Assembly: GCA_963668505.2 (NCBI GenBank)
Contig: CAXXWY010000022.1
Coordinates: 86,613-150,612, forward strand
Length of the DNA stretch: 64,000 nucleotides
Direction of reading: 5' to 3'
DNA from: Dehalococcoidia bacterium
Lineage (GTDB): Bacteria; Chloroflexota; Dehalococcoidia; Lucifugimonadales; UBA3495
Shown here in pieces: positions 27,699 to 56,677 of the stretch. The notes beneath the pieces are model-generated. The model searched no databases. It saw only the letters and a program-made list of their open reading frames with translations, and was not told where the DNA came from. Within the stretch, counting starts at the first letter, position 1. Every line of letters starts with the position of its first letter. The position numbers and the translations under genes were made by a program.

Positions 27699-27890
27699 TT
27701 CTAAACATGCTGCCCGCAGGTATGAGACCTTTGCATAACTTCACCAAAGAGCATAACCTGCGGAGAGCGGACGGCATTTTCTAACCTGGCCCCCATCCCT
27801 GGATTCCGGGTCGGGGGCCGGGATGACGGTTGCCTAAAGGTCTCCATTCATCAAGAACCCTCGGAGCGCCGGCCATTAGGCAATGCAGAG

Positions 27891-33918: not shown

Positions 33919-33995
33919 TGGTGGGCCCGGATAGACTCGAACTATCGACCTCGGTCTTATCAGGACCGCGCTCTAACCGCCTGAGCTACGGGCCC
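33919..33995 (-). tRNA. tRNA-Ile (anticodon GAU), CCA encoded
   Basis: Minus strand reads gggcccgtagctcaggcggttagagcgcggtcctGATaagaccgaggtcgatagttcgagtctatccgggcccacca; 7-bp acceptor stem, D, anticodon and T arms fold by eye; 77 nt. Confidence 0.9.
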
Positions 33996-34012
33996 ATGCT
34001 GCTGCCCGCGAG

Positions 34013-34041
34013 ATTATATCAATGCTCCGATAAGCGCACAA
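34013..34041 (-). promoter_or_regulatory. Sigma-70-like promoter for tRNA-Ile
   Basis: Minus strand TTGTGC (34036-34041), 17-nt spacer, TATAAT (34013-34018), 17 nt before the mature tRNA 5' end. Confidence 0.45.
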
Positions 34042-34126
34042 CCCGCCGCCCGTTCGTCCCCGTATCAGGTACGGGGCAAGCTCTGAGGCTCTCGCCCTTC
34101 GTCTGGCTCAGGGGACACGAACGGAG

Positions 34127-34378
34127 GCGGGGAAATTTTAGATACCGTCCCATTTCCTCCCATTCTCTCCCATTTTGCCCCCCGCCTCCGCGGGCGTGAC
34201 GCTGCCGGGGTTGGACCTTGTTCTGCCCCCGCCTCCGCGGGGGTGACGATGCCTGGGGCCCCTTCTCTTTCCCGGGGGCCGGACTGGGTTTTTGTGTGGC
34301 GGCTGGGCCGCGGTTGCCTGCTGTTATGGTAGGGCAGCGGGCGGGGGTTTGGGAAGGGGCAAGTTGTCAGTATCTGGG
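34127..34378. repeat. Left arm of an inverted-repeat pair (partner 43443..43655)
   Basis: 34298-34378 matches the reverse complement of 43443-43524 with about 4 mismatches in about 80 nt; 34127-34180 matches the reverse complement of 43598-43655. Confidence 0.8.
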
Positions 34379-34531
34379 GGGGCGTTCGGGCGGGGGTTGT
34401 CGAAGGGCCGGCGTGTCACCAACCCGTCGCCCGTTAGACCCCCGCCTGCGCGGGGGTGACGGTAGGGAGTGTGCGGGGGTGACGGTGCTGTTGAGCGAGT
34501 ACTGGCAAGGACGCGCTGCCGCGCCCGGAGG

Positions 34532-35020
34532 CTACTGGCCGTTGTTCCCGTTTTCCATCAGGCGCCGCAGGATTGTAGAGAGAGTTTGCATGGCGACCTG
34601 CATGGCCTGCTGGGACTCTTCGTGGCGCTGCTGGGACTCTTCGTGGCGCTGGAGGGACTCTTCGTGACGCTGTTGGGCTTCTTCGTGGCGCTGGAGGTCG
34701 GTCGTGTGCGCCTGTTGGATTTCGGCCAGACGTTCCACGACGGTGAACATCCGGTCCTGTATATCGACCAGCCGGTTGATGGCCTCTTTGTTCTCTTGGA
34801 TGTCGGCGGCTTGGTCCCGTTGAAGCGCCTGAAGCATCTCCAGCATCACATCGTGCTTCAGGGCGGCGGCTTTCAGTTCCCGCTGTGTCTCCGCCTGCTG
34901 CTGCTGGATCTCTTTCAGTTCCCGCTGGGTTTCGGCCATTTCCCGCTGCGTCGCCTCCATGCTTAGGATGGCGTCTTCCAGGCGGTCGTGGCGGGCGTTG
35001 TGGTCGTTGTTGGTGGACAT
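34532..35020 (-). CDS. Coiled-coil protein of unknown function (copy 1)
   Basis: 162 aa from ATG 35020 (MSTNNDHNARHDRLED...); heptad-like Q/E/R-rich sequence with 7-aa QRHEES(L/Q) repeats; no known motif. Confidence 0.5.
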   Translation of the reverse strand: MSTNNDHNARHDRLEDAILSMEATQREMAETQRELKEIQQQQAETQRELKAAALKHDVMLEMLQALQRDQAADIQENKEAINRLVDIQDRMFTVVERLAEIQQAHTTDLQRHEEAQQRHEESLQRHEESQQRHEESQQAMQVAMQTLSTILRRLMENGNNGQ

Positions 35021-35130
35021 GGGGTGTCTCTCTTGATGGTAGTGTAGGCGATGGCGGTTGGGGTTTGCAAGCGGGCCGGTTGCGCCCCCAACCCGCCGCC
35101 CGTTCGCCCAACCCGTCATTCCCGCGCAGG

Positions 35131-35528
35131 GAGACCTTTGCGTAAACTCCCTCTCCCTTGATGGGAGAGGGGTTGGGGTGAGGGAGAGCTAAGAAACCAG
35201 TCCACCGATGCGGAGCGACTTCTCTGGTCGAGACTTCGCGATCGGAGGCTGCTGGGCCTTAAGTTCAGGAGGCAATCCCCTATCGGAAGATACATCGTCG
35301 ATTTCGTTTGTCCAGAGAAGAGACTCGTCATAGAGATCGATGGGGACCACCACCAGGAACAACGAACGCCCGACGCATCCAGGACGGCATGGCTAAGCTC
35401 CCTTGGATTCAGAGTGATTCGGTATTGGAACAATGAAGTACTGGAGTCGATTCGGATGACGTTGGACGGCGAAACGGCGCCCTCACCCCAACCCTCTCCC
35501 TTCAAGGGAGAGGGGGTTTTGCAAAGGT
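35131..35528 (+). mobile_element. ~400-bp TIR-bounded element carrying only a DUF559 ORF, flanked by a 10-bp duplication (copy 1)
   Basis: Ends gagACCTTTGCgtaaactCCCTCTCCC / GGGAGAGGGggttttGCAAAGGT; CCCGCGCAGG at 35121-35130 and 35529-35538; unoccupied site at 43894-43931. Confidence 0.65.
35161..35475 (+). pseudogene. DUF559 (Vsr-like/PD-(D/E)XK) endonuclease-domain ORF, copy 1, start out of frame
   Basis: ...[85 protein letters not shown]; relative to copy 2 an extra G (GGGG at 35169-35172) puts ATG 35161 out of frame. Confidence 0.6.
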
Positions 35529-35667
35529 CCCGCGCAGGCGGGAATCTCGCGCCTTGGGGCCGCGGGCCGTTAGACCCCCGCCTGCGCGGGGGTGACGGTA
35601 GGGAGTGTGCGGGGGTGACGGTGCTGTTGAGCGAGTACTGGCAAGGACGCGCTGCCGCGCCCGGAGG

Positions 35668-36156
35668 CTACTGGCCGTTGTTCCCGTTTTCCATCAGGCG
35701 CCGCAGGATTGTAGAGAGAGTTTGCATGGCGACCTGCATGGCCTGCTGGGACTCTTCGTGGCGCTGGAGGGACTCTTGGTGGCGCTGGAGGGACTCTTCG
35801 TGACGCTGTTGGGCTTCTTCGTGGCGCTGGAGGTCGGTCGTGTGCGCCTGTTGGATTTCGGCCAGACGTTCCACGACGGTGAACATCCGGTCCTGTATAT
35901 CGACCAGCCGGTTGATGGCCTCTATGTTCTCTTGGATGTCGGCGGCATGGTCCCGTTGAAGCGCCTGAAGCATCTCCAGCATCACATCGTGCTTTAGGGC
36001 GGCGGCTTTCAGTTCCCGCTGTGTCTCCGCCTGCTGCTGCTGGATCTCTTTCAGTTCCCGCTGGGTTTCGGCCATTTCCCGCTGCGTCGCCTCCATGCTT
36101 AGGATGGCGTCTTCCAGGCGGTCGTGGCGGGCGTTGTGGTCGTTGTTGGTGGACAT
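35668..36156 (-). CDS. Coiled-coil protein of unknown function (copy 2)
   Basis: Same as copy 1 with a few substitutions (RDHAADIQENIEAINR; HQESLQRHEESQQ); ATG at 36156. Confidence 0.5.
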   Translation of the reverse strand: MSTNNDHNARHDRLEDAILSMEATQREMAETQRELKEIQQQQAETQRELKAAALKHDVMLEMLQALQRDHAADIQENIEAINRLVDIQDRMFTVVERLAEIQQAHTTDLQRHEEAQQRHEESLQRHQESLQRHEESQQAMQVAMQTLSTILRRLMENGNNGQ

Positions 36157-36266
36157 GGGGTGTCTCTCTTGATGGTAGTGTAGGCGATGGCGGTTGGGGT
36201 TTGCAAGCGGGCCGGTTGCGCCCCCAACCCGCCGCCCGTTCGCCCAACCCGTCATTCCCGCGCAGG

Positions 36267-36691
36267 GAGACCTTTGCGTAACTCCCTCTCCCTTGATGGG
36301 AGAGGGTTGGGGTGAGGGAGAGCTAAGAAACCAGTCCACCGATGCGGAGCGACTTCTCTGGTCGAGACTTCGCGATCGGAGGCTGCTGGGCCTTAAGTTC
36401 AGGAGGCAATCCCCTATCGGAAGATACATCGTCGATTTCGTTTGTCCAGAGAAGAGACTCGTCATAGAGGTCGATGGGGCCACCACCAGAAACAACGAAC
36501 GCCCGACGCATCCAGGACGGCATGGCTAAGCTCCCTTGGATTCAGAGTGATTCGGTATTGGAACAATGAAGTACTGGAGTCGATTCGGATGACGTTGGAC
36601 GGCGAAACGGCACCCTCACCCCAACCCTCTCCCATCACGGCACCCTCACCCCAACCCTCTCCCTTCAAGGGAGAGGGGGTTTTGCAAAGGT
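36267..36691 (+). mobile_element. DUF559 TIR element (copy 2, part of the tandem duplication)
   Basis: Same termini and CCCGCGCAGG flanks (36257-36266, 36692-36701); carries a 30-bp internal tandem duplication at 36608-36667. Confidence 0.6.
36296..36605 (+). pseudogene. DUF559 endonuclease-domain ORF, copy 2, internal frameshift
   Basis: ATG 36296 ([22 protein letters not shown]...VIEVDG) then frame change at the G-run near 36476-36480; continues as [33 protein letters not shown] in ORF 36442..36777. Confidence 0.6.
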
Positions 36692-36731
36692 CCCGCGCAG
36701 GCGGGAATCTCGCGCCTTGGGGCCGCGGGCT

Positions 36732-37356
36732 GTTAGACCCCCGCCTTCGCGGGGGTGACGGTGGTAGTGTGCCGTGAGTGACGGTGGTAATGTGCCGGGG
36801 GTGACGTGCCCCCCCCCACCCGCTCACCCTGAGCTTGTCGAAGGGCTGTTGCGCCTCCAACTCGTCGCCCGTTCGTGTCCTTCGAGAGCCTCAGGACGAA
36901 CGGGCTGGCCCTCCGCCTCCGCGGGGGTGACGGTGGTGTTGCGCGGGGGTGACGGGTGGGGGAGTATTGTCATTCCGAGCGGAGCCGAGGAATCCCCCCC
37001 GGACGTGCAACCATCCTTGGCGGCCGAGATTCTTCGTCGCAGGCTCCTCAGAATGACAGGGGGGCAGGCTGGTGTCCCCGGCCCACCCGCTCTCCCTGAG
37101 CTTGTCGAAGGGCTGTTGCGCCTCCAACTCGTCGCCCGGCCGTGTCCTTCGAGAGCCTCAGAGCTTGCCCCGTACCTGATACGGGGACGAACGGGCTGGC
37201 ACTCTCCTAATGCTGCAACTCCGGGAGGCCGTATTCCCAGGCATGGTCCCGGTAATGCGGCAACTCCGGAAGGCCGTACTCCCGGGCATGGTCTTGGTGA
37301 TGACGGAGAATCAGGACGCCTACTCCGCCCATTCTCCGGTCACAACTGCACGCACG
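36732..37356. repeat. Array of GC-rich REP/MITE-like palindromic elements (several families)
   Basis: cccccgc-N4-gcggggg hairpins; two units cccacccgctc(a/t)ccctgagcttgtcgaagggctg... (36815-36912, 37083-37200); 91-bp palindromic element tgtcattccgag...ctcagaatgaca at 36968-37058. Confidence 0.8.
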
Positions 37357-40300
37357 CTACTGGATTCGGTGCCAGCCGCTCCAGGAGCCCCAGATGACGT
37401 TGAACGCCCGCACCCGGAAGAAGGTGCCGTGGTTCGAGAAGTTCCTGCAATGCTGATTGCCGCCCACGTACTTGCTGGTCGTTGTGCTCTCGCCCGCGCT
37501 GCTGGTGTTGATCGACCGCTTACACTCTATCCCGTACTTGCTGATCCCGGTATGGCCGGTGCCCGTGTTGCTGGGCGCTGTCCAGCTTGCATTCCAGTTG
37601 CTCGTGTTGATGCTAAGGCCCGTCGGCGTGCCCGGCGCTTGGAGCGCGGCTAGCGACGACGACTGCGCCCACGCGCTGGCCGCGTTGCCGCTGCCCGTGG
37701 CGCGCAGGCGAATGACGTAGGCGTTGCCCTTGTCCAGCCCGGTGACGCTGTGGCTGGTGGCCGACGATCCTATCGTGCCGCCGCAGGCCGACCATGTGGA
37801 GCCGCTGTCGGTGCTGCACTCCGCCGCGTAGCCCGTGCGCCCCGTGCTCGACGACGGCGCAGGCCAAGAGAGCGCGACGCTGTCGCTGTTGGCCGTCGCG
37901 CTGTAGGTGCGCGTCGCGGAGAGGCCCGTGGGCGGGCTGAGCGGCGTGTGTGAACGCCGCCGACGCTATCTCCGTCGCGCAGGCGGAGTCGCTGTACGCC
38001 CTGAAGGTGTAGTCCGTGTTGACCGCCAGGCTGCTCAGCGCATGGGAGTAGTCCGACTCGCCCGCCGTGCACGTTCCGGTGTTCGGCGAGGTCTCCTTCA
38101 GCCACCAGCCGCCCGCCTTGCCCGTCAGCGTCAGCGTGGCGGTCGTGCTGGTGACGTCGCTCACCACGAGCGACTGCCCCGGCGGCACCGCCGCCACCTC
38201 GAGCTTCAGCGGCACGCCGCTGTTGTCCCAGACGTTTCCGGGGCGATGCCTGCCGTTGTCCGCAAGCGACCAGCCGTTGGCCGAGGGGACCCTCGTCTCG
38301 CCGGTCGAGCCCGTCCTGGCGATGTCGTAGTAGTTGGAGCCGCCGGGGGCGTTGGGCGCGCTCAGCCAGATGTAGTAGGTCGTGTTCCTCGACAACGAGC
38401 AGTTGTTTGTGCTGCTGGGCGTGCAGGCGTAAGTGTAGTTCCCGTTCCCGGTGGGGTCGCTGCCGCTCAGCGTGGCCAGCGCCGGTCCGATGTTCACCCC
38501 CGAAGCCGAGTGCAGCTTCACCGTGAACTCGCCCGGGCTGCCCGTCTTCCCGTTGACGCGGATGGTGATGCTCGACAGCGTGTAGCCGCTCGTGTTCGAG
38601 CCGGTGGTGAAGCCTTGCGCCGCGACCGAGCCCTGCTGGTAATGGCCGACTTTGTAGGAGCCCGACCCCGTCGCGCCTATGTTGCTCACCGTCACCGCCG
38701 TTGTGAACGTCACGCTGCGGAGCGCCGTCGTGCAGGTGGCGTCGCCGTACGCCGCGTAGGCGTAAGTACTGCCCGCCGTGAGGCTGCTCAGCGCGTGGGA
38801 GAAGTCGGCCTCGCCCGCCTCGCAGGTCCCGGCGGGCGCGGGCGATGTCCGCTTCAGCCACCAACTGCCCGTGTGCCCCGTCAGCGTCAGCGTCGCCGTG
38901 GTCGTGTGGATGCCGCTCACGGCGATCCAGTTCGCCTCCGTGGTGAACGACGTCCTGCCGATAACCGTCGTGCAGGACGAATCGCTGTACGCCTCGTAGG
39001 TGTACGCCGTGCCGCGATTGAGGTTCGATAGGTCAAGGGCGGCGCCGTAGCCCACGCCGGACGAGCACGTCCCGCCGCTGGGCGTCGTGTACTTCGCGTA
39101 CCAGTTGCCCGTGCCGCTGCCGGAGAGCGTGAGCGTCGCCGTCGTGTCCGTGACGCTGCTCGCCGTCATCGTGCGCAGCGTGGTGAACGTCCCGCTGGCG
39201 ACCACCTGCTTGCAGGCGGAATCCCGGTAAGCCGCGTAGGTGTACCCCGTGTTCTGTTGCAGGCCCGTGAGGGCGAGCGTCGAGCCATTGGCAATGGCGG
39301 ACGAGCACGCCCCGCCGGCGGGGGTGATCCGCTTCGTGTGCCAGGCGCTCTCGCCGCCCTCGTTGGCCAGCGTCAGCGTTGCCGTCGACGTGGCGATGTC
39401 GCTGGCGGTGAGCGACGGCGCGTCATGGCCGTACTCCACGCTGAACATGACCGCGCGCACCAGGCGCGTCCACGTCGAGCCGCCGTCGTCCGTGTGCCGG
39501 ATCTCGTTGGCGATGCTGAACCCGCTGTCGGCGGGCGACGCCGTCTCGTTGTTCGTGCCCGACCGCTGCCAGTAGTAGGCCCGCCCCGTGGTGCCGCTGC
39601 AGTCCTGCACTCCCTCGACGGTGCGGCATTGCGGCACGGGGACGCTGAGCACGACGTAGTAGGTCTCGCCGGAGTCAAGGGCGCAGCCGTCGCCGGAGCA
39701 GGTGTATATCCCTTGGGAGTTCTCCGGCGGCCGCGCCGGGCCGCTGAGCGCGGCGTTGGCAATCGCCGTCCCAGGGTTGCCGTCGCTCCCCGCGCTGAAG
39801 AGACGCACGTTCAGGTCATACTCGGGGGCCGGCATTCCGATGCCGCTGTCCCCGAACAGGAGCGTTACGCGATTGAGGGTGAAGCTGTCCGCGCCCGTTC
39901 CCGTGGTGAAGGAGCTCGCCGTCCAGTCGTTGGCCGACCAGCCCACGGGCATGGTGGAGCCTACCTGCCGCTGGCCCAGGTTGCTCACGCTCGCCTTTGC
40001 GGTCGTGAACGTCACGTCCGTGTCGAATGCCGGGGAGCAGGGCGCGGCCTCAGTGGACATGTACGCCTTGAAGGTGTATTCCGTGCCGGGTGTGAGGCCG
40101 GTGACGGGCGCGCTCGCGACCCCTTGGCTGCCGAAGCCGTCGAAGTGGCCCACGCAGGCGGCGCCGGTCTCGGTCGATTTGTACCCCCAGGTGCTGTTGG
40201 ACCCCACGTTGTAGGCGAGGAAGGTCGCGGTCGTCGCGGTCACGTTCTCGACACCTCCCCTGGACGAGGATGCGGGGAAGAGGTGCTTGCTCGCGATTGC

Positions 40301-42817
40301 GTCCGCGGCGTCGCAGCCGTCCTTGCTGTACGCCTCGAAGGCGTACTGGTTCCTGTTGGTGTGGTCGAAGGTGAAGCCGGTCAGCGTCACCGACGAGGTC
40401 CCTTCAGCGACGGACGTGCAGGTCCCGGCGGTGGGGGCGGTCTGCTGGTACCACCACGCCGCCGTCGTCGTCCCATCCGCCTTCGTCCAGTTGACGATGT
40501 TGATCGTCAAGGTGTCCGCGCTCGTGTCCGCGCTGCCGTCCAGGCGGACGGTCTTGAAGGAGACGGCTCCGACCGCGGCGGCGCAGCCGGAATCGACGTA
40601 TGCGGTGTAGGTGTAGCTCTCCCCCGGGGTCAGGCTGAGCGCCACGCTCTTCTGCCCGTAGCCCACGGCATAGCAGGTGTCGTCGCCGCTGGGCGCGGTG
40701 CGCTTGTACCACCAGTTGGTCAGCAGGCCGGAGCCCTCGATGACGAGCGTCGCCGAGTTGTCCGTGACCCCGTCCGCGCGCAGCCCGTACAGCGTTGTGA
40801 AGGTGGCCGTGGTGACGGCGTCGCCGAGGCACTGCCGGTTGTCGTAGGCGGCGTAGGTGTAGGCCCGCCCCGGCAGCAAGCCGGTGATGTTCACCGATGC
40901 GCCGCCCGCCGACGTGCAGAGGCTGTCGTTGGGCGAGGTCTGCGCGTACCACCAGTCGCCTGTGGACGTAACTGTGAGCGTCGCCCCCTCTGTCGTCTCG
41001 GCGCTGGCGCTCATCTGGACCGCTGCGTTGGCGTTGGCCGCGACGATGCTCACCATGCCGACCCTGTCCGACTGCCAGCGGAGCTGACCATTGTTGTTCG
41101 TTAGACCGCTGTTGGCGATGGACCAGCCGTTGCCGGCGGGAGTGTTGACCTCGCTGCCCGAGTTCGTCGTCCGCAGCCTATGGCCCTGGATGCTGACCCC
41201 CCCGGCTGCGGTGCTCATGACGATGAAGTAGGTGGTGTTGGGGTCGAGCGCACAGTCCGTCCCGGAGCAGTTCCAGGTGTTATTGGCGCCGGTGCCCGGT
41301 TGGCCGGGGCCGTCGCTCAGCGTGACCTTGGCCGTCGCCGCGGGGTGGTTCGAGTTGTTGGCGTCCGGCGCGTGGATGGCCACCACGATGTCCGGAGGAT
41401 TGCTTTGTTTCTGGTGGAAGAAACCGCTGACGCTGCTGAGGGTGTAGCCGCCAAGCCTGCCGCCCGTGGTGAAGGCGACGGCGCACTTGGAGCCGCCGGT
41501 GCGGTCGCCCACCGAGCAGGTGTAGTTCCACTGCTGGCCGATGTTGCTGACGGAGACGTTGCCGGGGGACAGGTTGGCCTGGGTCTGCGCCGTTGCCGAG
41601 GCGATCTCCGCGCCGCCGCACTGGCCGTTGCCGTAGGCGGTGATGGTGTAGCCGGTGTCCGAGTCGAGGCCGGTAACCGTCGCCTCCGAGCCGTTGACCG
41701 GCCCGGTGCAGGTCACGGACTGGGCGGATGCGATGCCCGCGCCGCCTGTGTTCGCCCCGCCGCCGGAGGTCTGGCTGGTGGTGTAGTACCACTCGCCGCT
41801 GTAGTTGTCCATGGTGAGAGTGGCGCCGGTCGGCGTCGGGTCGGTGACGGTCAGCGTGGGCGGCGGCGTGTACGGCCCGATGGACGGCGAGTTGCGCCAG
41901 TTGCTGCCGCCGGCGCTGTTCTTGGCGCGCACACCGACGATGTAGGTGGAGTCGTTGTCAGCGTCGATTTCGATGCTAGTCTCGGCGTGATCGAGGGCGG
42001 CGAGCTGCCAGCTCTGCGCGCCGTCGTCGGTGTAGGTGACGTGGTAGCCGGTCGCGCCGCTCGGAGCATCCCAAGACGCCGTCAGCGTCCCGTCGGAGCG
42101 GGTTACGGTGACGGATGCGACCGCGCCGGGCGGCGTGGGCCCGGGCGTGTAGGGACCGACAGCGGGCGAGTTGACCCAGTTGCTGCCGCCGCTGCTGTTC
42201 TTGGCTCGCACGCCGACGATGTAGGTCTTGGCGTTGTCCGCGCTGAACGTGATGCTCGTTCCGGTGTGGCTGAGGGCGGCGAGTTGCCAGCTCTGCGCGC
42301 CGTCGTCGGTGTAGGTTACGTGGTAGCTGGTCGCGCCCGCGGGGGCTGTCCAGCTTGCGGCGAGTGAGCCGTCGGCGCGGGTTACGGTGACGGATGCGAC
42401 CGCATCGGGCGGGGTTGGCGTAGGCGTGGGCGTGTACGGGCCGCTGGACGGCGAGTTGACCCAGCCGCTTCCGCCGTTGTCGTTCTTGGCGCGTACGCCG
42501 ACGATGTAGGTCTTGGCGTTGTCGGCGGAGATGGCGATGCTGTTCGAGGCGTGGGCCAGGGCGGCCAAGTCCCAGCTTGCGCCGCCGGTGGAGCTATAGG
42601 TTACGTGGTAGGAGGTTGCGCCGCTGGGGGCGTCCCAGGTTGCGGTGAGTTGGCCGTCGGAGCGGGTGACGTTTACTGAGGACACCGCATCGGGAGCGTC
42701 CAGCGAACCCTGGGCCGAGGCGGTGGCGGCCCAAGCCGATGCGGCGACTACGGCCGCCAGCAATGCCGCAAACAGCCAGATGGATGGAGATTGTGAAAGT
42801 CTATGCCGTATACCCAT
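37357..42817 (-). CDS. Giant secreted protein (~1,820 aa) made of FN3-like and other beta-sandwich repeats; one apparent frameshift near 37945
   Basis: Track ORF 37613..42817 (signal peptide AASAWAATASAQG; three FN3-like units ...TATWDAPSGATSYHVTY...; many TTG..GYTLSS modules). Its last ~110 aa are low-complexity Arg/Gln-rich sequence unlike the rest of the protein. Hand translation of the frame starting at 37944 gives two more FN3-like units (PLSPPTGLSATRTYSATANSDSVALSW...RLRATGSGNAASAW...; ...NASWTAPSNTG...FFRVRAFN) ending at TAG 37357-37359. Confidence 0.75.
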
Positions 42818-42972: not shown

Positions 42973-43001
42973 ATTGTATAGCCTTTTGCCGAGATTTACA
43001 A
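42973..43001 (-). promoter_or_regulatory. Candidate sigma-70-like promoter of the giant gene
   Basis: Minus strand TTGTAA (42996-43001), 17 nt, TACAAT (42973-42978); about 150-nt AT-rich leader to ATG 42817. Confidence 0.35.
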
Positions 43002-43980
43002 TCAAAGCGGGCCGGGGGTTTGAGATTCCTCGGCTACCCCTCGGAATGACAATACTCCACCACCGTCACCCCCGCGCACCCTACCGTCACCCCTGCGGAG
43101 GCGGGGGTCTAACGCCCGACGGCTCCCAGGGCGCGAGATTCCCGCCTGCGGAGACCTTTGCGTAACCGTCATTCCGGCCCCCACTGTCATTCTGAGGAGC
43201 CTGCGACGAAGAATCTTGGCCGCCGGGGGATGGTTGCGCGTCCGGGGGGAGATTCCTCGGCTACGCTCGGAATGACATGGTTGGGGCGCGGGGCGGCCCT
43301 TCGACAAGCTCAGGGAGAGCGGAGGTCCCGTTCGTGGTGAGGCCAAGCGCGCCAGCCCGTTCGTGGTGAGCCTGTCCTGAGCTCGTCGAAGGGGCCTGTC
43401 GAACCAAACCGAACGGGCGGCGGGTTGGAGGCGCAACAGCCGCCCCAGCTACTGACAACTTGCCCCTTCCCAAACCCCCGCCCGCTGTCTTACCATAACA
43501 ACAGGCAACCGCGGCCCAGCCGCCGCCCCCAAAAAACCAATCGGCCACTGAGGCCCCAGGCACCCGATGTCAGAACAGAGTCAAACCCCGGCCCACCCGC
43601 CAAAATGGGAGAGAATGGGAGGAAATGGGAGGGGATCTAAAATTTTCCCCGCCCCAGATTCCTCGGCTGTGCTCGGAATGAAAGTGGGCCTGGTAGCCCG
43701 TTCGTGGTGAGCGTGGGGAGCGCCAGCCCGTTCGTGGTGAGCCTGTCGAACCAAACCGAACGGGCGACGGGTTGGAGGCGCGGCAGCCCTTCGACAAGCT
43801 CAGGGAGAGCGGGGGTGGGGGGTTACACGTCACCCCCGCACATTGCCACCGTCACCCCCGCGGAGGCGGGGGTCTAACGGGCGGCGGCTCCCAGGCGCGA
43901 GATTCCCGCCTGCGCGGGAATGACGGGTTGGGGGGAGGGATAAGTCAGATGGGAGCAGGGCTAAGCCGGTTGGGGCTGGG
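43002..43980. repeat. Array of REP/MITE-like elements, largely the same families as 36732-37356 but in opposite orientation
   Basis: 93-bp element at 43185-43277 is the reverse complement of 36968-37058; cagcccttcgacaagctcagggagagcgg units at 43283-43440 and 43690-43815; intact REP hairpin gagattcccgcctgcgcgggaatgac at 43899-43924. Confidence 0.8.
43443..43655. repeat. Right arm of the inverted-repeat pair (partner 34127..34378)
   Basis: See left arm; contains AATGGGA x3 at 43604, 43614 and 43624. Confidence 0.8.
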
Positions 43981-49790: not shown

Positions 49791-50967
49791 TCACAGTGCC
49801 TTTTTGACCATGTCGACATCAATCGTCCCACCCGGCTTTAGGGCACCCGAAAGCACTGACTTCTCCAAGACTCTCCGACACGCTCTGAACAATTCCGACG
49901 AGGTCTTGATCTGTGTCCCCTCTGCGATGGCAAACAGGGCGTTTCCTTCGAAAGGATACTCATCTGGGTCCTCTGCATCATAACGATAGCCCTTCAAAAC
50001 CTGCCTGAGGAACTCCACCGCCTCGTCTGAGGTGAGCGGCTCTATTTCTAGTGGCTCGCGAGACATTCGCCTGATGACGGCTTGGGTTAGCAGTCCGTAT
50101 ATGCTCCTTACATCCCCAGTCATCCCGAAAATGAAACAGCAATTCTCTGGACAAGCGTTGATGAGATCACGGATGCCTTGGTTCATACTCAAAGCTTCCT
50201 GTGGCCGAAAGTCATTTGCGATCTCAAGCTCATCAAAGAAAAAATAGGAACGCTCTGTTGCGTCCGATGACATCCCCCTCACTAAGAATACTAGTACCCC
50301 TCGTGCACAAGTTAACGTATGCACCCAGACACCTGGTTGCATCGTATTCAGATTCGATTGCACTAGTCATGTTGTACTTGGCGTATTTGCTCATCGCACC
50401 CGCCCCGGGAAGCTTCCCGCCGAGTAGGAGCGCGAGTGCTTCGCTAGATTCGCCCTTGATGCCTCTCAAGAGAAGTCCAAGCGGAGGATAGCTTGGCGTC
50501 AGCCCAGGATCATTGTAGATTCCGTCCATGGCTTTTTGCTGTTCTTGTAAAGTGCCATTCGGGTTCTGTCTCTTAGCAGTTTCTTCAACAGCAAGATCAA
50601 GCCACTCAGAGGTTTCCTTTATGTGGGGCACCAAGAGATCCATGATCTTGTTGTATAGGGCAACAAAGTTCATGTTTGCGGCGACTTTCAAAGTCTCAAG
50701 GTAGACACAAGGCGAAGCAAATTCCTCTTTTCGTTCCTCTGTAATCAAATAGCTGAGGTATCTGAGAGCATGAGATTTGCCAGTCCCCAGTTCGCCGTGA
50801 AGTATTGCAAACTCCGACAGACCGACTTGATCTGATCTACACGATTGCACTATGTCCAAAAGTTGCGACCTAAGCTGGCTATATCCTGCCCAAATCGTAA
50901 CTTTCTCACCCGGAACCAAAGTGAACGGGTTATTGGTTAACTTCGCAATCTCCAGGGTAGTATTCAT
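49791..50967 (-). pseudogene. ORC/Cdc6-like AAA+ P-loop ATPase (island gene 5) with one frame disruption
   Basis: ORF 50233..50967 (NPFTLVPG...FAILHGELGTGKSHALRYL, Walker A) and ORF 49791..50363 (SYFFFDELE Walker B, ...CCFIFGMTGD...) overlap; frames rejoin at either the A6 run 50239-50244 or the C5 run 50274-50278. Confidence 0.7.
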
Positions 50968-51558
50968 CTACTGTGCCCCCTTCGCGTCTGCGATCGCAGA
51001 ACGATTGTTTGAAGCCCAGGTGGCAAAGGTCTGGGTGCCGGGATTGCCGATTAGGTCAGTTTCAATGAGTTTCGCTGTGGATGAGTACACGAGTCGATCC
51101 CCGGTCAACAAGGCCAACTCAAGAAGAGCCGGTGCGGTTGAACTCTTAGTGCCAAAGCCTCTGCTTGTGAGATTCGGTGATCCAACGATTACCATCTCTG
51201 AATCGTGGCTATCCTGGAATAGATATGCCTTAGCATGAAGATCAGGGTGGAGATAGACCTCGGCCCCCTTTTGGTCCAAATCCTCCAGCAATTGTAATTT
51301 CATTCTAAAGCGTTGATTCTTGCCACTACTTCCTGGGGGAGGCGTTGTCATTACAGTTATTTTTGCCCCGTAAGCAAGTTGTCTGACAAGCAAATCAGAC
51401 AGAACCCCATTTCCCCAGAAATCATAGTCTTGCATGTTGAAGGAAATAATTGTCGCCTTGGTCAAGAGTCTAAACGCCCCTATCCACTGGAGAACCTCTT
51501 GGGCTACATCGTCTCCTAGGGCAGGGATGACAACTGGCGTGTTGCTCTGGGCTTGCAT
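50968..51558 (-). CDS. Single-HKD phospholipase-D-family nuclease (island gene 4)
   Basis: 196-aa ORF; LHPDLHAKAYLFQDSHDSEMVIVGSPNLTSRG matches the HxK...GSxN PLD/Nuc signature; its stop abuts the next start (TAG-ATG at 50968/50967). Confidence 0.75.
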   Translation of the reverse strand: MQAQSNTPVVIPALGDDVAQEVLQWIGAFRLLTKATIISFNMQDYDFWGNGVLSDLLVRQLAYGAKITVMTTPPPGSSGKNQRFRMKLQLLEDLDQKGAEVYLHPDLHAKAYLFQDSHDSEMVIVGSPNLTSRGFGTKSSTAPALLELALLTGDRLVYSSTAKLIETDLIGNPGTQTFATWASNNRSAIADAKGAQ

Positions 51559-51567
51559 CGCAGCAAT

Positions 51568-52743
51568 CTACGGGACAAAGCCCTTCATGGCAATGTAGCC
51601 ACTGCGGCCGTGCCTTTGACGCATCCTATATATCTTATCTGGAAACTCTTGGAATGTAGATTCCATAAGATCACTGAATGAACTCCGGTCGAGATACTTA
51701 CCGTCAGCCGCTAGTTGGGCGGCCATTGCATCATATATGGATTCGATGGCCGCCTCATTGAAAACATGGAATTTTACATGAGGGTAAATCGCCTCGATAA
51801 ATCGAAAGTACTCGTCAAGCGATAAATGAGCTGGCGATGCTGACCCTAGGAATGATGATGATATCGCCTGCCAACACAAGTCCTTCGGGTCGTCTGAAGG
51901 CGCAAGGCCGAGCAATTGGGTGACTTCGGCGGAAAAGGGCAGGACAAGTGCTGATCCTGAACAGCAGCCCTCCTCCTTGAATGCCGACAATAGCCGGCGT
52001 CCTGACTCAGTTACGCGATAATCTTCCCCACTCTGTTGCCGAATGTAGCCGAGATCCTTCAGCCACCCTCTTCTAGGATTTACGGTGTGTGAATAAAACC
52101 TCTCTACCTTCTGCTCTGGGGTGAAGCTTCGGTCTTCCCTGTAGGCCGACCAAGACTGGGTCTGTTTGCGGTCCATGTCCACAGCGGTCGTAAGCCGCCG
52201 CTTTGAATCGGAAAGTTCCTGCAAGATGATATCCCTGACCAACTTCGATTCGATATTTTGGTTTGCCCAAGACTCGCGAAGCGTCAAGATGCTCAGTAAA
52301 CGGCCTACTAGCAGTTCACCGAGTGAAGTTGATATGTCGGCATTGGCGAGGATGTCAAGAAGGTTTAGAGTTGCTTCTCCATCGGATTCGAGCACCGCAT
52401 GCAACAGCAACGCCCCGATAGATTCATTAGAGGCATTTGTCTGCTGAATGGCGTACAGCGCGTACCCTTTGTCCGATAGCATAAGTTTGTTCCCGGCTTT
52501 ATGAAGGAATCCAAGAGCTCTACCGACGTCAATAACCCCGTCAGCGTATTTAGGCCCGTTTACGGCTTCCCGTTCTAGTATCACAGAGCGAAGAGAGGTA
52601 ACGGAAGCAGGTCCAATATTGTGAAGATAGGTCACCAGTCTGGCGAATCGAAAGATGTCGTGCAAGCCGTTGGTGTAACCGATCCTGCGAGAAAGTTCCC
52701 CCCTGACTCGAGCACGCTGCTGAACTAACCCAAGCATAGCCAT
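51568..52743 (-). CDS. Hypothetical protein, 391 aa (island gene 3)
   Basis: Intact ORF, 4-nt gap from the upstream gene and 9-nt gap to the downstream gene; no catalytic motif recognised; possible winged-helix-like segments. Confidence 0.6.
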   Translation of the reverse strand: MAMLGLVQQRARVRGELSRRIGYTNGLHDIFRFARLVTYLHNIGPASVTSLRSVILEREAVNGPKYADGVIDVGRALGFLHKAGNKLMLSDKGYALYAIQQTNASNESIGALLLHAVLESDGEATLNLLDILANADISTSLGELLVGRLLSILTLRESWANQNIESKLVRDIILQELSDSKRRLTTAVDMDRKQTQSWSAYREDRSFTPEQKVERFYSHTVNPRRGWLKDLGYIRQQSGEDYRVTESGRRLLSAFKEEGCCSGSALVLPFSAEVTQLLGLAPSDDPKDLCWQAISSSFLGSASPAHLSLDEYFRFIEAIYPHVKFHVFNEAAIESIYDAMAAQLAADGKYLDRSSFSDLMESTFQEFPDKIYRMRQRHGRSGYIAMKGFVP

Positions 52744-52747
52744 GAGC

Positions 52748-54208
52748 CTATACTACCTTTGGCTCATCGCCACCGTGCGCTGTAACCCTCGGCCTCATGG
52801 CTACCAAGATGGCTCGATTCGTTTCTGCATCTGCAATCCATGCTTCTCCTGTTTCTAGCGCTCTGATGAGTGCCAGACGATCGGAAATTCTCGCAGTGCC
52901 GAAGGAAACATCCCTGGGGAAGTCCGCGGGCACTCGCGCAAGAGCAGCCGAAATATCCGCATCTACCACCAGTCGATGAGCAATGAGCAAGTCAACTTGG
53001 CTAACGACTCGCGAGTCCACGGCAGAGGGCTGCTGGGTTGCAAGTACCAACGAAAGACCCGCATCACGTCCACGTTTGACGTATTCGATAAGGATCGGTT
53101 TCGCCGCGGTCTGACTGTCGGAAGGACAAATGAGGTGTGCCTCATCTATAAGGGTCCAGACACCGAGAGGCAGTGAAGCGTGTTCTTTTGGTAGAGGCCT
53201 TTTTGAGCGTTCAGCAGCTTTCCGTTCCGTGTGGTACCTTCCCATAATGCGGAAGACTTTTTTGGCAATTACACTTACCACCAAAGACTTAGTGGCATCG
53301 TCCAGATTCCGCAGAAGGAAGATGCTCAATTGGCCCGGTCTAAGCACCTCAAGAACATCCCAACTACGCTTTTGGAATACCTTACTGTCCCGCAAGGCTT
53401 CAAGTTTCCAAAGGATAGCGTCACGTGTTTGTCGCTGTGAGTGTTCGTTGAGCTCGACATCCTCTTGCAAACAAGCAATCAGGTCGCCAAGGTCGTACTC
53501 TTCCTGAGCCGCGACCTTTCGATGTCCTTGTCTACCAATTCCCTCGGGTACAGTATAGCCAGCTTCGGAAACCTTCCTTAGAAGATTTCTGATAACTTGA
53601 CCTTGAGGAGAATAGATTTCCAATCTGAAAAGACCACACCAATCCTCAAGGTCAAGTTCCGCAGGGTCAATAGAAAACTCGACGGCTTCAGGGTGAACGG
53701 ATTGGTCACCATAGGGAGCAAAGAGCTTTGCCGAGGGCACTTGTTTAGCAGGAATGCCCCACTGCTGAAGCTGGATAAGCTGCTCTTTGTCCTCCTCGAG
53801 GCCTTCGTCTGGTGCATTTAGGAGTGCCCAAAACTGGCTTTGAGTATCGAAAAAGAGGGTTGTTATTGCCGAATCTTTAGTAGCGATGCTGGAGTCATAA
53901 CCCAACGTTAACCCTTCGGCCAAAATGCCTAGGTCATAACTTTTTCCGGTGCCACGGCGACCGCAGACGAAGACCACATGTGGAGTATGGACATCAAGCC
54001 AGACGTTTGAATCAAATTTATTGGAAACGCGAGCTTGCTCTATACATTTCCCTAGTAATATTAAGGCACTAGTGTCACCGCGATTTCGGCGCTGACCCAT
54101 AAGGAGATGCCGTCCGTTGGAGATGTATGCAGCCCGTTCGATAGGCTCAGATACTTCAACCTTTCGGACTCCTGTTATGTGCCCGAGAGATGGCATGCTA
54201 GATGGCAT
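52748..54208 (-). CDS. HerA/FtsK-superfamily (DUF87-like) ATPase (island gene 2)
   Basis: 486-aa ORF; Walker A VFVCGRRGTGKSYD, Walker B VWTLIDEAHLI, SLVLATQQPSAVD...LLIAHRL; start overlaps the upstream stop (alternative ATG at 54196). Confidence 0.8.
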   Translation of the reverse strand: MPSSMPSLGHITGVRKVEVSEPIERAAYISNGRHLLMGQRRNRGDTSALILLGKCIEQARVSNKFDSNVWLDVHTPHVVFVCGRRGTGKSYDLGILAEGLTLGYDSSIATKDSAITTLFFDTQSQFWALLNAPDEGLEEDKEQLIQLQQWGIPAKQVPSAKLFAPYGDQSVHPEAVEFSIDPAELDLEDWCGLFRLEIYSPQGQVIRNLLRKVSEAGYTVPEGIGRQGHRKVAAQEEYDLGDLIACLQEDVELNEHSQRQTRDAILWKLEALRDSKVFQKRSWDVLEVLRPGQLSIFLLRNLDDATKSLVVSVIAKKVFRIMGRYHTERKAAERSKRPLPKEHASLPLGVWTLIDEAHLICPSDSQTAAKPILIEYVKRGRDAGLSLVLATQQPSAVDSRVVSQVDLLIAHRLVVDADISAALARVPADFPRDVSFGTARISDRLALIRALETGEAWIADAETNRAILVAMRPRVTAHGGDEPKVV

Positions 54209-56378
54209 CTGCTAATTCTCCATCAAGATGCACAAAGTCCACAATCGTAACGAAGCTATCTTCTTTCAGACTTGGGTCGGTTCTTTGGAGGAAGCCTTTA
54301 AGCTCAGATATATCTGAGAATCCATCGAGAGTTGTATCGCCGCAATATAGGCTGCGAAGATGCATCTGTGTGCAACGGGTGACGCGTACCAGCTTTTGTT
54401 GATCGTCATCATGTAGCAACGTTAGCCCTCGCTGAAGACGCTTGCGGCCTCTGTATATCGCCGTATGTTTTGATCCGTCTTGTGCAGAAAACAAAGATCT
54501 GCCGTTATCAGTGAAGCTTTGCAACCTGGAGCCGCGACGTTTCTGAATTCCCAATAATTGAATATATTCGGTCCCGGTCGACACTGAATTGTGCGCTGAA
54601 CTGCTAAGTCTAACAACGAGGTCCGGCTGGAGGGAATGTATGAACGGCCGGGGATTAGAGGCGGCAGCGATAACCGTGACTCCATACTTCTTCGAAGTGC
54701 GTTGAACATTGTAGGCAACTAGGTTGGCAGTAATCTCATCTAGATTGGAACAAAACTCGTCAACTATCCACACATTGCTTCCCGACGCCAGCATTCGTGC
54801 AAGCAATGTCCTGTACTGTTGACCCTTGCTCAATTCCTCAAACCGCTTAAGGTAAAGGAATGGTTCTGAAAGACCGGCCAGCCCTAGATAATGTAGGCCC
54901 TCCCTAACGCCGTCGTCCGCAAAGAGCTCTATTAGTGACTTTTGGGATCGTATCGGGCGAAAGGATGATGAGCGAAAGCCATCCGGTAAGGCGATACAAC
55001 CGTCAACCTCGACCTTGGTGGAATCCACTTGGCCCACCAATGATTCTAGCAGCGTCGTCTTGCCAGAGCCTGATGGCCCTTCAACCAACACTATGTCGCC
55101 TGGCGAAATGTCACAGTTTAGGTCGTGCAACACGGTAGTGCGAATGTCAGTCGGCGATATGTCGAATGCCTGCTGTATTGCATGGGTAGCTAAAGTCCTG
55201 CGAACTCGGCTCCGGTAGGTGATGCTCAATCCCGATATATGTATAGGGCCCTCAACGGGCTTAGTGTGAGTCTTTGGATTGTAGGCTGGTTCCTCTGGTG
55301 CCAAGGTAGCTAGGCGATTCTTCAAGAACTGACTCGAATACTCATTCAGGCCCATCATGTAAGTAGGTTTGGGTAGCGAGACGATACCACGAAAAAGGTC
55401 GAAGTCCTTAAGCACGGAGTGAACTGACAATCGTTGGAGCCTCGTCGTGAGGTCGCTTGCCTTTATGTTTTGTTCCTTCATCAAGGCCACGGACCTTTTC
55501 ATTCGAGCTACTTGTTGGTCGAGGATGCCAGATATTTGCTCAAATTGAGTTGTATCCTCTTCTCCTTCTCCAAAACGCTGAATGAGGTAACTCATATCTT
55601 TAGCGACACGGTTCAGATTTCCATCAGTTTCTCCAACGTAATCCATTCCCGCACGACGCACGAACGGAACAAACTTCAGCATGTCGGCGGAGATTTCGAG
55701 GAAGAACGGCATTTTGCCTGCCACTTGCCATCGGTGACGTGCGAAGATCGCAGCTTGCTCCACCAATAACCTGCCAATGCCGAATCCCCTAAATTCGGGA
55801 GAGATCACCGTCCTAGAAATTCTGACTAACCTATGTATGTTCTTTCTGAGAGTTTGGATATCCCAGGCGTCCCAACGAACCCCGTCCAGGTCGAAGGGGG
55901 CGTCGAGTATCCTTGCCCTTGGTTTGTTCATGAAGAACGGGGTTGCGAGCTCGATAAAGCCTATGACCATTGGGTAAGCAGGGTCAAACGTCCGGACAAT
56001 TAGTCTCGCAGTGCGGCCGTGTACCGTACTGCCCCTGTAGTGGAGATCAGACAAGTGCTCATATGCGGAGTGCTCATGTGCGTCGGTTATCTCCTTTATA
56101 AGCACATCCAGCCGTAACCCTCCCAACGTGAGGCTAATCGGCGACGCAAAGCTAGGAAGTATCTGACACCTACCAGTGTCGCAAGGGACCCAGGCCTTAG
56201 TGCCTTCTTGCAAAATAAGGTCGTCGGTGGTGAGACAAGCTGACCGTGGCACATCTAGCCAAACTGGGCCAGGTTCGAGACGGAGCCTCTTTACGTGCCC
56301 TCTCCATGTAACTGAGGCGACCGACATCTCGCGTCTTGCCTGACTGTGGAGCGGCGTTCTGTCTCGAGTCTCTGCCAT
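54198..56378 (-). CDS. GNAT acetyltransferase - ABC-type ATPase - C-terminal ASCH/PUA-like fusion protein (island gene 1)
   Basis: Track ORF to TTG 56411; ATGs at 56378 and 56327. GNAT motif A SPEFRGFGIGRLLVEQAA; ABC motifs GPSGSGKTT, LSKGQQYR, VWIVDEFCSNLD; tail ...HTAIYRGRKRLQRG...KLVRVTRC...TTLDGFSDISELKGFLQR...FVTIVDFVHL resembles ASCH. Confidence 0.75.
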   Translation of the reverse strand: MAETRDRTPLHSQARREMSVASVTWRGHVKRLRLEPGPVWLDVPRSACLTTDDLILQEGTKAWVPCDTGRCQILPSFASPISLTLGGLRLDVLIKEITDAHEHSAYEHLSDLHYRGSTVHGRTARLIVRTFDPAYPMVIGFIELATPFFMNKPRARILDAPFDLDGVRWDAWDIQTLRKNIHRLVRISRTVISPEFRGFGIGRLLVEQAAIFARHRWQVAGKMPFFLEISADMLKFVPFVRRAGMDYVGETDGNLNRVAKDMSYLIQRFGEGEEDTTQFEQISGILDQQVARMKRSVALMKEQNIKASDLTTRLQRLSVHSVLKDFDLFRGIVSLPKPTYMMGLNEYSSQFLKNRLATLAPEEPAYNPKTHTKPVEGPIHISGLSITYRSRVRRTLATHAIQQAFDISPTDIRTTVLHDLNCDISPGDIVLVEGPSGSGKTTLLESLVGQVDSTKVEVDGCIALPDGFRSSSFRPIRSQKSLIELFADDGVREGLHYLGLAGLSEPFLYLKRFEELSKGQQYRTLLARMLASGSNVWIVDEFCSNLDEITANLVAYNVQRTSKKYGVTVIAAASNPRPFIHSLQPDLVVRLSSSAHNSVSTGTEYIQLLGIQKRRGSRLQSFTDNGRSLFSAQDGSKHTAIYRGRKRLQRGLTLLHDDDQQKLVRVTRCTQMHLRSLYCGDTTLDGFSDISELKGFLQRTDPSLKEDSFVTIVDFVHLDGELADAI

Positions 56379-56677
56379 TCGGCTCCCGTCACTTATTTGG
56401 TAGGGTGCCAAGAGATTATGCGCTAGTCTAGGCTCGAACTGTATTCTACTTTGGTACCCTGAGACAGTCTACTACCGTGAGGAGAGTTCACAGAGTTTCT
56501 CGGACGAGGGCACGCATGCGGGTTTGTGCAATGGGTGAATGCCCCCTATCCCTCTGGCGTTGGTACGGCTATTGCAAAAAGAACAATGGCTCTGGACGAG
56601 GCATGCCATAGGTTGACTGTACAAGCATGGGGGCGGCATACTGGCGTCGTCTTGAGCCTCTATCCTGCGGGAGACGC

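Follow-up and report, generated by a model that had tools for sequence, protein, structure and literature searches.

Short mobile units that carry the ends of an insertion sequence (IS) and have no transposase gene are known as MITEs (miniature inverted-repeat transposable elements) and mobile insertion cassettes (MICs), the latter concept stemming from IS231 and MIC231. IS5-family ends are found, for example, on the MITEs BrickBuilt in Porphyromonas gingivalis and the ISNme1-derived ATR in Neisseria. The ends of ISNme1 are GAGACCTTTGCAAAA and TTTTGCAAAGGTCTC, and similar ends are present in ISPg1, BrickBuilt and ATR (Klein et al. 2015, Table 2, PMC4596501). Here we describe a cassette with such ends in a 64,000-nucleotide stretch from a Dehalococcoidia bacterium (lineage UBA3495; assembly GCA_963668505.2, contig CAXXWY010000022.1, positions 86,613 to 150,612 of the forward strand), which is referred to as the window and numbered from its first letter. 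The cassette consists of IS5-type terminal repeats, an inverted pair of BoxC repeats and the remnant of a gene for a DUF559 endonuclease domain, and it interrupts a repetitive extragenic palindromic (REP) hairpin at its tip.

BoxC, also named PIT element or TMECO, has been known since 1992 (Bergler 1992; Hoyne & Maher 2000). It is described as forming an intrastrand triplex and has the consensus CCCTCNCCC-N3-6-GGGNGAGGG-N3-GGGNGAGGG, and for the Escherichia coli motif triplex formation was demonstrated in vitro (Holder et al. 2015, PMC4666352). BoxC was also described as a switch between G-quadruplex and hairpin (Kaplan et al. 2016, PMC5100583). Strain MG1655 has 23 copies including five inverted pairs, and BoxC is present in more than 260 genomes; its loci show elevated local instability, transposases or integrases were 'never found' nearby, no common flanking gene was seen, no associated enzyme is reported, and earlier work cited in the same paper attributes neither promoter nor terminator activity to the motif (PMC4666352). 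The words endonuclease and ycjD are absent from Holder et al. 2015 (PMC4666352).

DUF559 belongs to the Vsr-like PD-(D/E)XK nucleases, one member of the same clade being a homing endonuclease from a group I intron. The window protein shares fold and family clade with E. coli Vsr and YcjD, the Neisseria gonorrhoeae protein 3HRL, Caulobacter VsrA and the homing endonuclease I-Bth0305I. Unlike these known nucleases it has no link to a cytosine methyltransferase and no intron or intein context, and its copies are pseudogenes. Insertion into REPs is known from other IS families: IS1397 and ISKpn1 insert into the loops of palindromic units, and members of the IS110/IS1111 group insert into REPs. These elements resemble the cassette in choosing a defined position in the loop region of the palindrome but, unlike the cassette, encode their own transposase.

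Structure of the cassette

When the full 15-bp ends are counted, the cassette comprises 401 bp (35131-35531). Its parts, the interrupted REP and the corresponding uninterrupted site are the following.

35115..35130, plus strand: left half of the interrupted REP hairpin, GTCATTCCCGCGCAGG, with 5' arm, loop GCAG and one further G
35131..35145, plus strand: left IS5-type terminal inverted repeat GAGACCTTTGCGTAA, 13/15 matches to the ISNme1 left end GAGACCTTTGCAAAA
35149..35184, plus strand: left BoxC/PIT/TMECO motif, CCCTCTCCC-TTGAT-GGGAGAGGG-GTTG-GGGTGAGGG, from a generic triplex scan
35186..35464, plus strand: remnant of the DUF559 (Vsr-like PD-(D/E)XK nuclease) domain, from Pfam PF04480 and translation
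35480..35514, minus strand: right BoxC/TMECO motif, inverted, CCCTCTCCC-TTGAA-GGGAGAGGG-TTG-GGGTGAGGG, from triplex scan and translation
35517..35531, minus strand: right IS5-type terminal inverted repeat GGGACCTTTGCAAAA, 14/15 matches to ISNme1
35532..35552, plus strand: the duplication's right copy (GCGCAGG, 35532-35538) and, after it, the remaining REP hairpin and its flank
43894..43931, minus strand: paralogous ('empty') REP site without interruption, flanked by homologous sequence to either side, from alignment

The resemblance of the outer 15 bp to the IS5-family repeat of ISNme1 (13 of 15 positions on the left, 14 of 15 on the right) was found by a literature search for the literal end sequence, which led to Klein et al. 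2015 (PMC4596501). Ends of this type go along with a transposase in N. gonorrhoeae, where a 662-bp element bears an open reading frame (ORF) with the IS5-type transposase domain PF05598. In the window the left end GAGACCTTTGCGTAA is found at 35131, 36267 and 43151, and a match with a single mismatch starts at 27724 (four matches in all, 0.03 expected). A BsaI-like reading of the terminal GAGACC/GGTCTC was dropped because the ends were recognised as IS5-type repeats.

The inner parts of the inverted repeats, CCCTCTCCC-loop-GGGAGAGGG-loop-GGGTGAGGG, are the BoxC repeat of E. coli. Counting a second copy of the cassette, which is described below, the window has four such motifs. Three of them (36284-36318 as well as 35480-35514 and 36643-36677 on the minus strand) fit the BoxC consensus exactly; the fourth (35149-35184) has a 4-nt second loop. 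All four occurrences of the hairpin CCCTCTCCC-N5-GGGAGAGGG in the 64 kb, where none is expected, lie at the ends of the two cassette copies. The hairpin part folds at -10.7 kcal/mol, as calculated for the left motif of copy 2 (36280-36322), which is free of the extra G of copy 1. As in four of the five E. coli pairs, the motifs form an inverted pair with the GGGTGAGGG blocks pointing inward. The E. coli pairs, which are 16-27 bp apart with no associated gene reported, resemble the cassette minus its gene, whereas in the cassette and in most DUF559 loci the DUF559 gene fills the space in between.

DUF559 is the only domain inside the 401 bp, which otherwise contain short ORFs only; neither a transposase gene nor any ORF for a DDE transposase lies between the ends. 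Since the outer 15 bp match IS5-family ends, the unit is to be placed among the transposase-less MITEs or MICs, and it is probably a non-autonomous element of this type that was moved in trans by an IS5-family DDE transposase. Indeed, IS-family ends, the missing internal transposase, and a target duplication together with a paralogous empty site are all present. With BrickBuilt and ATR the cassette has in common that it is short and transposase-less, has GAGACCTTTGCAAAA-type ends, a target duplication, filled and empty sites, and lies nested among other repeats. It differs from both in its cargo, a DUF559 gene bracketed by BoxC, and in its target, the tip of a REP hairpin. A reading of the cassette as an RNA element is unsupported, because an Rfam search of 34000-37300 at E <= 1 returned nothing, and the window and related loci matched tRNA alone. 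A search for defence systems with PADLOC gave only a chance-level DpdF match (E = 0.007).

Insertion at the tip of a REP hairpin

The intact REP hairpin, ATTCCCGC-GCAG-GCGGGAAT, has a stem of 8 bp and folds at -9.6 kcal/mol. On both flanks of the cassette CCCGCGCAGG is present, which had been regarded as a 10-bp target duplication in the original prediction. The repetition itself is real, but its length needs correction. The full identical stretch is 11 nt (TCCCGCGCAGG), and the length of the duplication hinges on the placement of the right end, ranging from 7 to 11 bp. With complete 15-bp ends it is 7 bp, GCGCAGG, and its left copy is 35124-35130 (35120-35130 in the 11-bp reading). A 10-bp duplication (11 bp with the preceding T) would take CCC from the right terminal repeat. 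We therefore prefer 7 bp, a preference drawn from one event. As GCGCAGG is composed of the loop GCAG with two adjoining bases on its 5' side and one on its 3' side, the 7-bp duplication is almost centred on the hairpin tip.

Removal of the cassette and one duplicate leaves a sequence with a 38-nt core which is the exact reverse complement of 43894-43931. The flanks of the filled and the empty site align over 110 nt, with inverted-repeat matches of 93% and 90%; the empty site, 8 kb distant from the cassette, is paralogous and not allelic. The left terminus at 43151-43165 is cut off after 15 nt and joins a REP half at the same hairpin position as in the cassette, 13 nt after the start of ATTCCC, the REP loop beside it being in complementary orientation relative to the cassette site. 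Thus, the empty site and the solo 15-nt terminus abutting a REP half stand as originally predicted, and so do the imperfect inverted ends, with arms of 34 nt at 88% complementarity in copy 1 and of 50 nt at 92% in copy 2.

The REP hairpin module ATTCCCGCGCAGGCGGGAATCTCGCGCCTTGGGGCCGCGG (about 40 bp) itself resembles an insertion. At 34415-34440 CCAACCCGTC is directly followed by GCCCGTTAGACC, and at the cassette site the REP module is found exactly between CCAACCCGTC and GCCGTTAGACC. These are therefore nested elements, the cassette lying inside a REP and the REP inside another repeat.

Tandem duplication and decay of the cassette

After its insertion the cassette decayed and was tandemly duplicated. 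The features relevant to this, and the other sequences of the window that have the same ends, are listed here.

36267..36694, plus strand: second full copy of the cassette with 428 bp and 96% identity to copy 1, from sequence comparison
34424..36722, no strand: pair of units in tandem whose starts are 1136 bp apart, with three REP-A copies as boundaries, from self-comparison repeats
43151..43165, plus strand: solo left terminus GAGACCTTTGCGTAA, cut off after 15 nt and abutting a REP half
27724..27837, plus strand: separate unit of 114 bp that has the same IS5-type ends, GAGACCTTTGCATAA ... TGCCTAAAGGTCTC, from end matches

Each tandem unit consists of a REP-A copy, a minus-strand gene of 195 amino acids predicted to form a coiled coil, and the REP hairpin with its cassette. 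REP site and target duplication are the same for copy 2 as for copy 1. The second cassette exists because the 1136-bp segment was tandemly duplicated, and therefore both copies represent one insertion event. Copy 2 is distinguished by a 1-nt deletion that frameshifts DUF559 and by a 30-bp internal duplication of the third block of the right BoxC. The 114-bp unit at 27724-27837 is intergenic and has unrelated content, neither BoxC motif nor DUF559, and no evident target duplication. The window as a whole thus contains one insertion (tandemly duplicated), one cut-off solo end and one further unit with the same ends.

The DUF559 frame of copy 1 matches Pfam PF04480 with 129.5 bits (cut-off 20.6, E = 5.9e-38) over profile positions 9-101 of 109, and the nearest solved structure is 3HRL of N. 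gonorrhoeae (E = 1e-25). The predicted domain is thereby confirmed, although not as an intact gene. The frame is open from 35162 to 35803, with no ATG, GTG or TTG before 35414 and no stop within the unit. The intact homologues P0001 and P0002, which are 82-83% identical, begin with MTQISRA.ELRKQ at an ATG a few bases after GGGTGAGGG. Compared with them (P0001/P0002, loci L081/L082), about 25 nt with the ATG and the MTQISRAK codons are gone, and a further 21 nt are missing near the 3' end. As copy 1 has no start and copy 2 is frameshifted, neither can be translated as an intact gene, and DUF559 is a pseudogene in both copies. In the genome collection, in which orthologous empty sites were sought, the best relatives reach 72-73% protein identity.

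Related units in metagenomes

In a single scan of metagenomes the left end with CCCTCTCCC after it was detected at 25 loci. A first set comprises ORF-less units from other metagenomes that combine an IS5-type end with a BoxC pair. A complete 133-bp unit (L105) keeps 10 nt of the ORF start beside its BoxC motif; L091, L096 and L102 are partial. The ORF-less L106 (about 247 bp) has both IS5-type ends and a 5-bp duplication, CAGCG, which is exactly the closing base pair and 3-nt loop of an 8-bp hairpin, TCTCCCCC-AGC-GGGGGAGA. L106 represents an unrelated second example of hairpin-tip insertion. Several other loci of the scan show the left end after a C-rich arm plus 4 nt. A second set is a 103-bp palindromic MITE from a Neisseria/Pasteurellaceae-type IS, in which CCCTCTCCC after the IS end was rejected as BoxC and is subterminal IS sequence instead. 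Viral contigs searched for the end-plus-hairpin pattern gave no match.

Near DUF559 genes, IS5-type ends were seen at only one of 85 other loci, L081, with GAGACCTTT(G/A)CAA ahead of the left BoxC. This contig encodes P0002 (82% identical), the second-closest DUF559 relative found. The IS ends are therefore a lineage-specific addition, and BoxC is the general partner of DUF559. At 1250-2100 of L081 tandem DUF559 units with a period of about 630 bp are present, which adjoin hicAB and the gene for the S subunit of a type I restriction-modification system; a further DUF559 gene lies 3 kb away (4617-4915).

Proposed assignment to an IS5-type mobile insertion cassette

Several observations count against the assignment to an element mobilised in trans by an IS5-family enzyme. 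There is only one clean cassette insertion in the 64-kb window, as its two copies are not independent, and independent support for hairpin targeting comes from the truncated solo end and one metagenomic relative only. Neither a gene for an IS5-family transposase nor a complete IS bearing these ends is present in the window; a scan of ten of its ORFs revealed no transposase, and every match to the terminal repeat belongs to a short unit. The left and right ends differ from each other at 3 of 15 positions. Furthermore, the duplication length is not constant, with 7-11 bp in the cassette and 5 bp in L106. For the groups of the IS5 family in ISfinder duplications are mostly 2-4, 8 or 9 bp, so that 7-11 bp is unusual; the length reported for BrickBuilt is 2-5 bp.

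As to the course of events, the cassette inserted at the apex of the REP hairpin with duplication of 7 bp (up to 11 bp, depending on right-end placement); in the explanation that we propose, an IS5-family DDE transposase, not DUF559, would have acted in trans on the terminal repeats. DUF559 then decayed by deletion of the start codon and first codons, and close to its 3' end another 21 nt were lost. REP-A copies recombined unequally, by which the whole locus was duplicated in tandem together with the coiled-coil gene, and copy 2 gained its frameshift and its 30-bp duplication later. The DUF559/BoxC module would represent cargo captured in this lineage, being elsewhere mostly a stable single-copy gene free of IS ends.

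Pairing of DUF559 with BoxC across phyla

For comparison, 80 DUF559 loci from genomes of 80 species belonging to many phyla were analysed by a generic scan for triplex motifs. At least one BoxC-type motif within 250 bp of the DUF559 ORF was detected in 67 of the 80 loci, and 35 showed the exact geometry, with one motif upstream on the coding strand and one downstream on the opposite strand. Motif density was 3.95 per kb near DUF559 and 0.149 per kb in the remaining 390 kb, corresponding to a 27-fold enrichment; shuffled loci gave 0. At the same score threshold inverted repeats flanked the DUF559 ORF in 50 of 79 loci, as compared to 20 of 79 for direct-repeat controls. The stem occurs in the variants CCCTCTCCC, CCCCTCCCCC and CCTTCCCC with complementarity kept (CCCCTCCCCC/GGGGGAGGGG, CCTTCCCC/GGGGAAGG).

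The repeats reach into the expression signals and the coding sequence of the gene. The third block GGGTGAGGG lies 3-7 nt ahead of the ATG and resembles a ribosome-binding site, and in 72 of the 101 top homologues, as also in the window copy, a single reading frame runs through the right BoxC and yields a PSPQPSP tail. In E. coli the ycjD product ends with SPSP and the stop codon within a BoxC-like hairpin, and TMECO number 9 follows about 170 bp beyond. The fabI (envM) region beside ycjD is, as we presume, the place where BoxC was first noticed. In N. gonorrhoeae a degenerate triplex motif flanks the DUF559 gene, which is the homologue of PDB 3HRL. In the roughly 100 bp to each side of the DUF559 ORF, loci L114 and L115 have direct repeats of about 80 nt (CCAACCCGTCA...GCTTATCCCCTCTCCCGTCGTGGGAGAGGG) besides inverted blocks, and their right BoxC is split by about 45 nt between third block and hairpin.

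The pairing of DUF559 with BoxC is widespread and has a fixed inverted geometry, and we found no description of it in the literature searched: no report linked DUF559 or YcjD to BoxC or treated DUF559 as cargo of a mobile unit, most subscription journals being outside the search. A G-quadruplex reading of GGGAGAGGGTTAGGGTGAGGG was set aside since it has been published already and leaves the association with the gene unexplained. For the question whether other DUF559 genes share the end architecture of the cassette, as had been proposed for verification of the original prediction, the answer is split. The BoxC part recurs in 67 of the 80 loci, but IS5-type ends in just one of the 85.

At the level of the family the arrangement recalls REP-associated tyrosine transposases (RAYTs) with their REPs and REPINs (paired REPs), as in both cases a single-copy, largely vertically inherited nuclease gene lies between inverted copies of a dispersed short palindromic repeat. 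DUF559 is, however, a Vsr-like PD-(D/E)XK protein and not a Y1 (HUH) transposase, its putative partner would be BoxC, and BoxC has nearly the same sequence across phyla, whereas the repeats of RAYT-REP/REPIN systems are species-specific. The cassette itself does not contain a Y1/HUH gene flanked by its REPs and has the geometry alone in common with those systems.

Based on this likeness we tentatively suggest that DUF559 proteins, i.e. E. coli YcjD and thousands of 'endonuclease domain-containing proteins', might be the missing partner nucleases of BoxC, structure- or sequence-specific and RAYT-REPIN-like on a Vsr-like PD-(D/E)XK fold. Such a vertically inherited nuclease would act in trans on BoxC singlets and pairs, and in the window the module would have been captured by IS5 ends, so that the suggestion is compatible with the assignment to a MITE or MIC. 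It is a possibility that we would not yet favour. The 27-fold density near DUF559, the motif in 67 of 80 loci with none in shuffled controls, and the fixed geometry with GGGTGAGGG before the ATG and a translated right BoxC in 72 of 101 homologues argue for it, as do the location of TMECO number 9 beside ycjD and the difference in copy number: DUF559 is single-copy and syntenic, BoxC multi-copy (23 in MG1655; a median of 17 BoxC places per E. coli genome). Nevertheless, BoxC loci persist in E. coli lineages without ycjD, and the association could stem from the gene's using BoxC as a cis-regulatory or structural element and not from its protein acting on BoxC.

Mobility of DUF559

An autonomous element would also account for part of the data. 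In that case the nuclease itself would mobilise the unit by homing, with empty sites being cleaved and the cassette copied in during repair, or in the manner of a restriction enzyme, by staggered cuts at palindrome tips and subsequent insertion, and the present copies would be dead derivatives. DUF559 is the only protein the unit ever encoded, its Vsr-like PD-(D/E)XK clade includes a group I intron homing endonuclease, and inverted BoxC motifs bracket DUF559 genes in 35-67 of 80 loci across phyla. ORF-less BoxC pairs of the same geometry, including L105 with its 10 nt of ORF start, look like deletion derivatives of an autonomous element, and duplications centred on a hairpin tip would suit symmetric cutting by a dimeric nuclease. 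We nevertheless consider this explanation unlikely. The termini are IS5-type repeats with a known cognate enzyme class, homing yields no target duplications, and both window copies are non-functional; with a dead ORF and a duplication present, the cassette does not qualify as a homing endonuclease gene.

The distribution of DUF559 points in the same direction. Related DUF559 cassettes of different species are found between the same neighbour genes (L114 and L115 are syntenic), and their identity is about equal to that of the flanks or, in several pairs, lower (e.g. 87% vs 93% and 71% vs 90%). Of 5426 complete E. coli genomes, 3378 carry ycjD, as a single copy and at one locus. In the other genomes the eef operon takes its place in the fabI-sapF interval, ycjD and eefRABCD being alternative occupants; because ycjD-less strains carry the eef operon, this interval offers no simple empty site. 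On plasmids DUF559 genes are rare (36 of 72,556 records). On present evidence, DUF559 itself is mostly not mobile.

In E. coli K-12 (L083, 1351040-1351830) a partial duplicate of the ycjD 3' end (GAGACGGTGCTGGAGAATATTC...) lies downstream of ycjD, with the BoxC-like hairpin of the stop codon on one side of it and TMECO number 9 on the other. At E. coli hrpB-mrcB (L085-L087) the BoxC inverted pair is, depending on the strain, present, absent or collapsed to a single hybrid hairpin by deletion between the two GGGAGAGGG arms; as a clean test of filled and empty sites the locus was rejected, its boundaries being blurred and no duplication visible. Finally, a Bacillota metagenome-assembled genome (MAG; L005) and a Bipolaricaulota MAG (L030) share a DUF559 cassette with 93% nucleotide identity, the flank being 75% identical over 312 bp. 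Of the 80 loci, these two alone are a candidate for a recent horizontal transfer, or they may stem from a binning error.

Surrounding repeats and genes

The gene of 195 amino acids is present at 34532-35119 and at about 35668-36255 (both minus strand), each copy adjoining one cassette copy. Its product has QRHEES heptad-like repeats, and no Pfam or NCBIfam match was obtained for it. A perfectly complementary inverted repeat of 47 nt, GCCCGTTCGTCCCCGTATCAGGTACGGGGCAAGCTCTGAGGCTCTCG, at 34048-34094 and 37150-37196 encloses the whole 3-kb block with the duplicated coiled-coil genes and both cassettes; the block adjoins tRNA-Ile (33919-33995, minus strand). The repeat-rich tracts 34048-37200 and 43000-43940, with at least five REP-like families, lie on either side of a gene for a 1734-amino-acid fn3-domain protein (37613-42817, minus strand). 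The two tracts are mutually inverted and mosaic, with 95-nt arms at 91% complementarity (34289-34383 and 43439-43533), and several of their repeats may resemble others known across phyla. Within the gene there are three tandem repeats of about 279 nt (73-79% identical) at 41848-42690 and periodic repeats of 240 nt at 38700-39420, which are probably repeated Ig/fn3-like domains. From 50000 to 56500 the GC content drops to about 50%, as compared to about 62% elsewhere in the window. On the minus strand this region has genes with domains of a HerA-type helicase (DUF87) and of an ABC-type ATPase and with weak AAA/ORC-like matches, and it may be a horizontally acquired defence-type island.

At least five REP-like families, present in both orientations, make up the mosaic of this region, recombination has left clear traces in it (the 1136-bp tandem duplication, the mosaic inverted modules), and the empty site is a paralogue 8 kb off. 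Nevertheless, it is highly improbable that the filled and empty sites arose by recombination of REP modules without transposition (gene conversion, precise deletion between 10-bp direct repeats, or DUF559 lying between partial REPs), which would need two independent partial REPs overlapping by exactly 7-11 nt with matching outer flanks that align over 110 nt, and against which speak also the unit's exact ends in a transposon-type inverted repeat, the same left end at the same hairpin position of another REP copy, and the same tip-of-hairpin duplication in a relative elsewhere (L106).

Meaning for the DUF559 family

A discrete unit inserted in a REP hairpin remains from the mobility claimed in the original prediction. 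A new, DUF559-driven kind of transposable or homing element does not, given the IS5 ends, the known MITE/MIC class, the BoxC nature of the inner motif and the dead gene; as IS-ended, transposase-less cassettes have already been known as MITEs and MICs, the unit does not represent an undescribed kind. The window element is an ordinary hitch-hiker with IS ends, no transposase and decayed cargo, and its value lies in pointing to the rule that connects DUF559 with BoxC. Such IS5-ended cassettes and the BoxC motif were known; for the family-wide pairing no description was found in the literature searched. Genes of DUF559, a very large family of small Vsr-like nucleases, usually sit within an inverted BoxC pair in such a way that the repeats take in the ribosome-binding site and the codons for the C terminus. 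If DUF559 proteins do act on BoxC, this action would explain the dispersal of BoxC, the ORF-less inverted pairs and the associated genomic instability, and the window element would be such a module with added IS5 ends. The pairing gives both orphans a hypothesis that is testable in E. coli by means of ycjD and the 23 BoxC copies.

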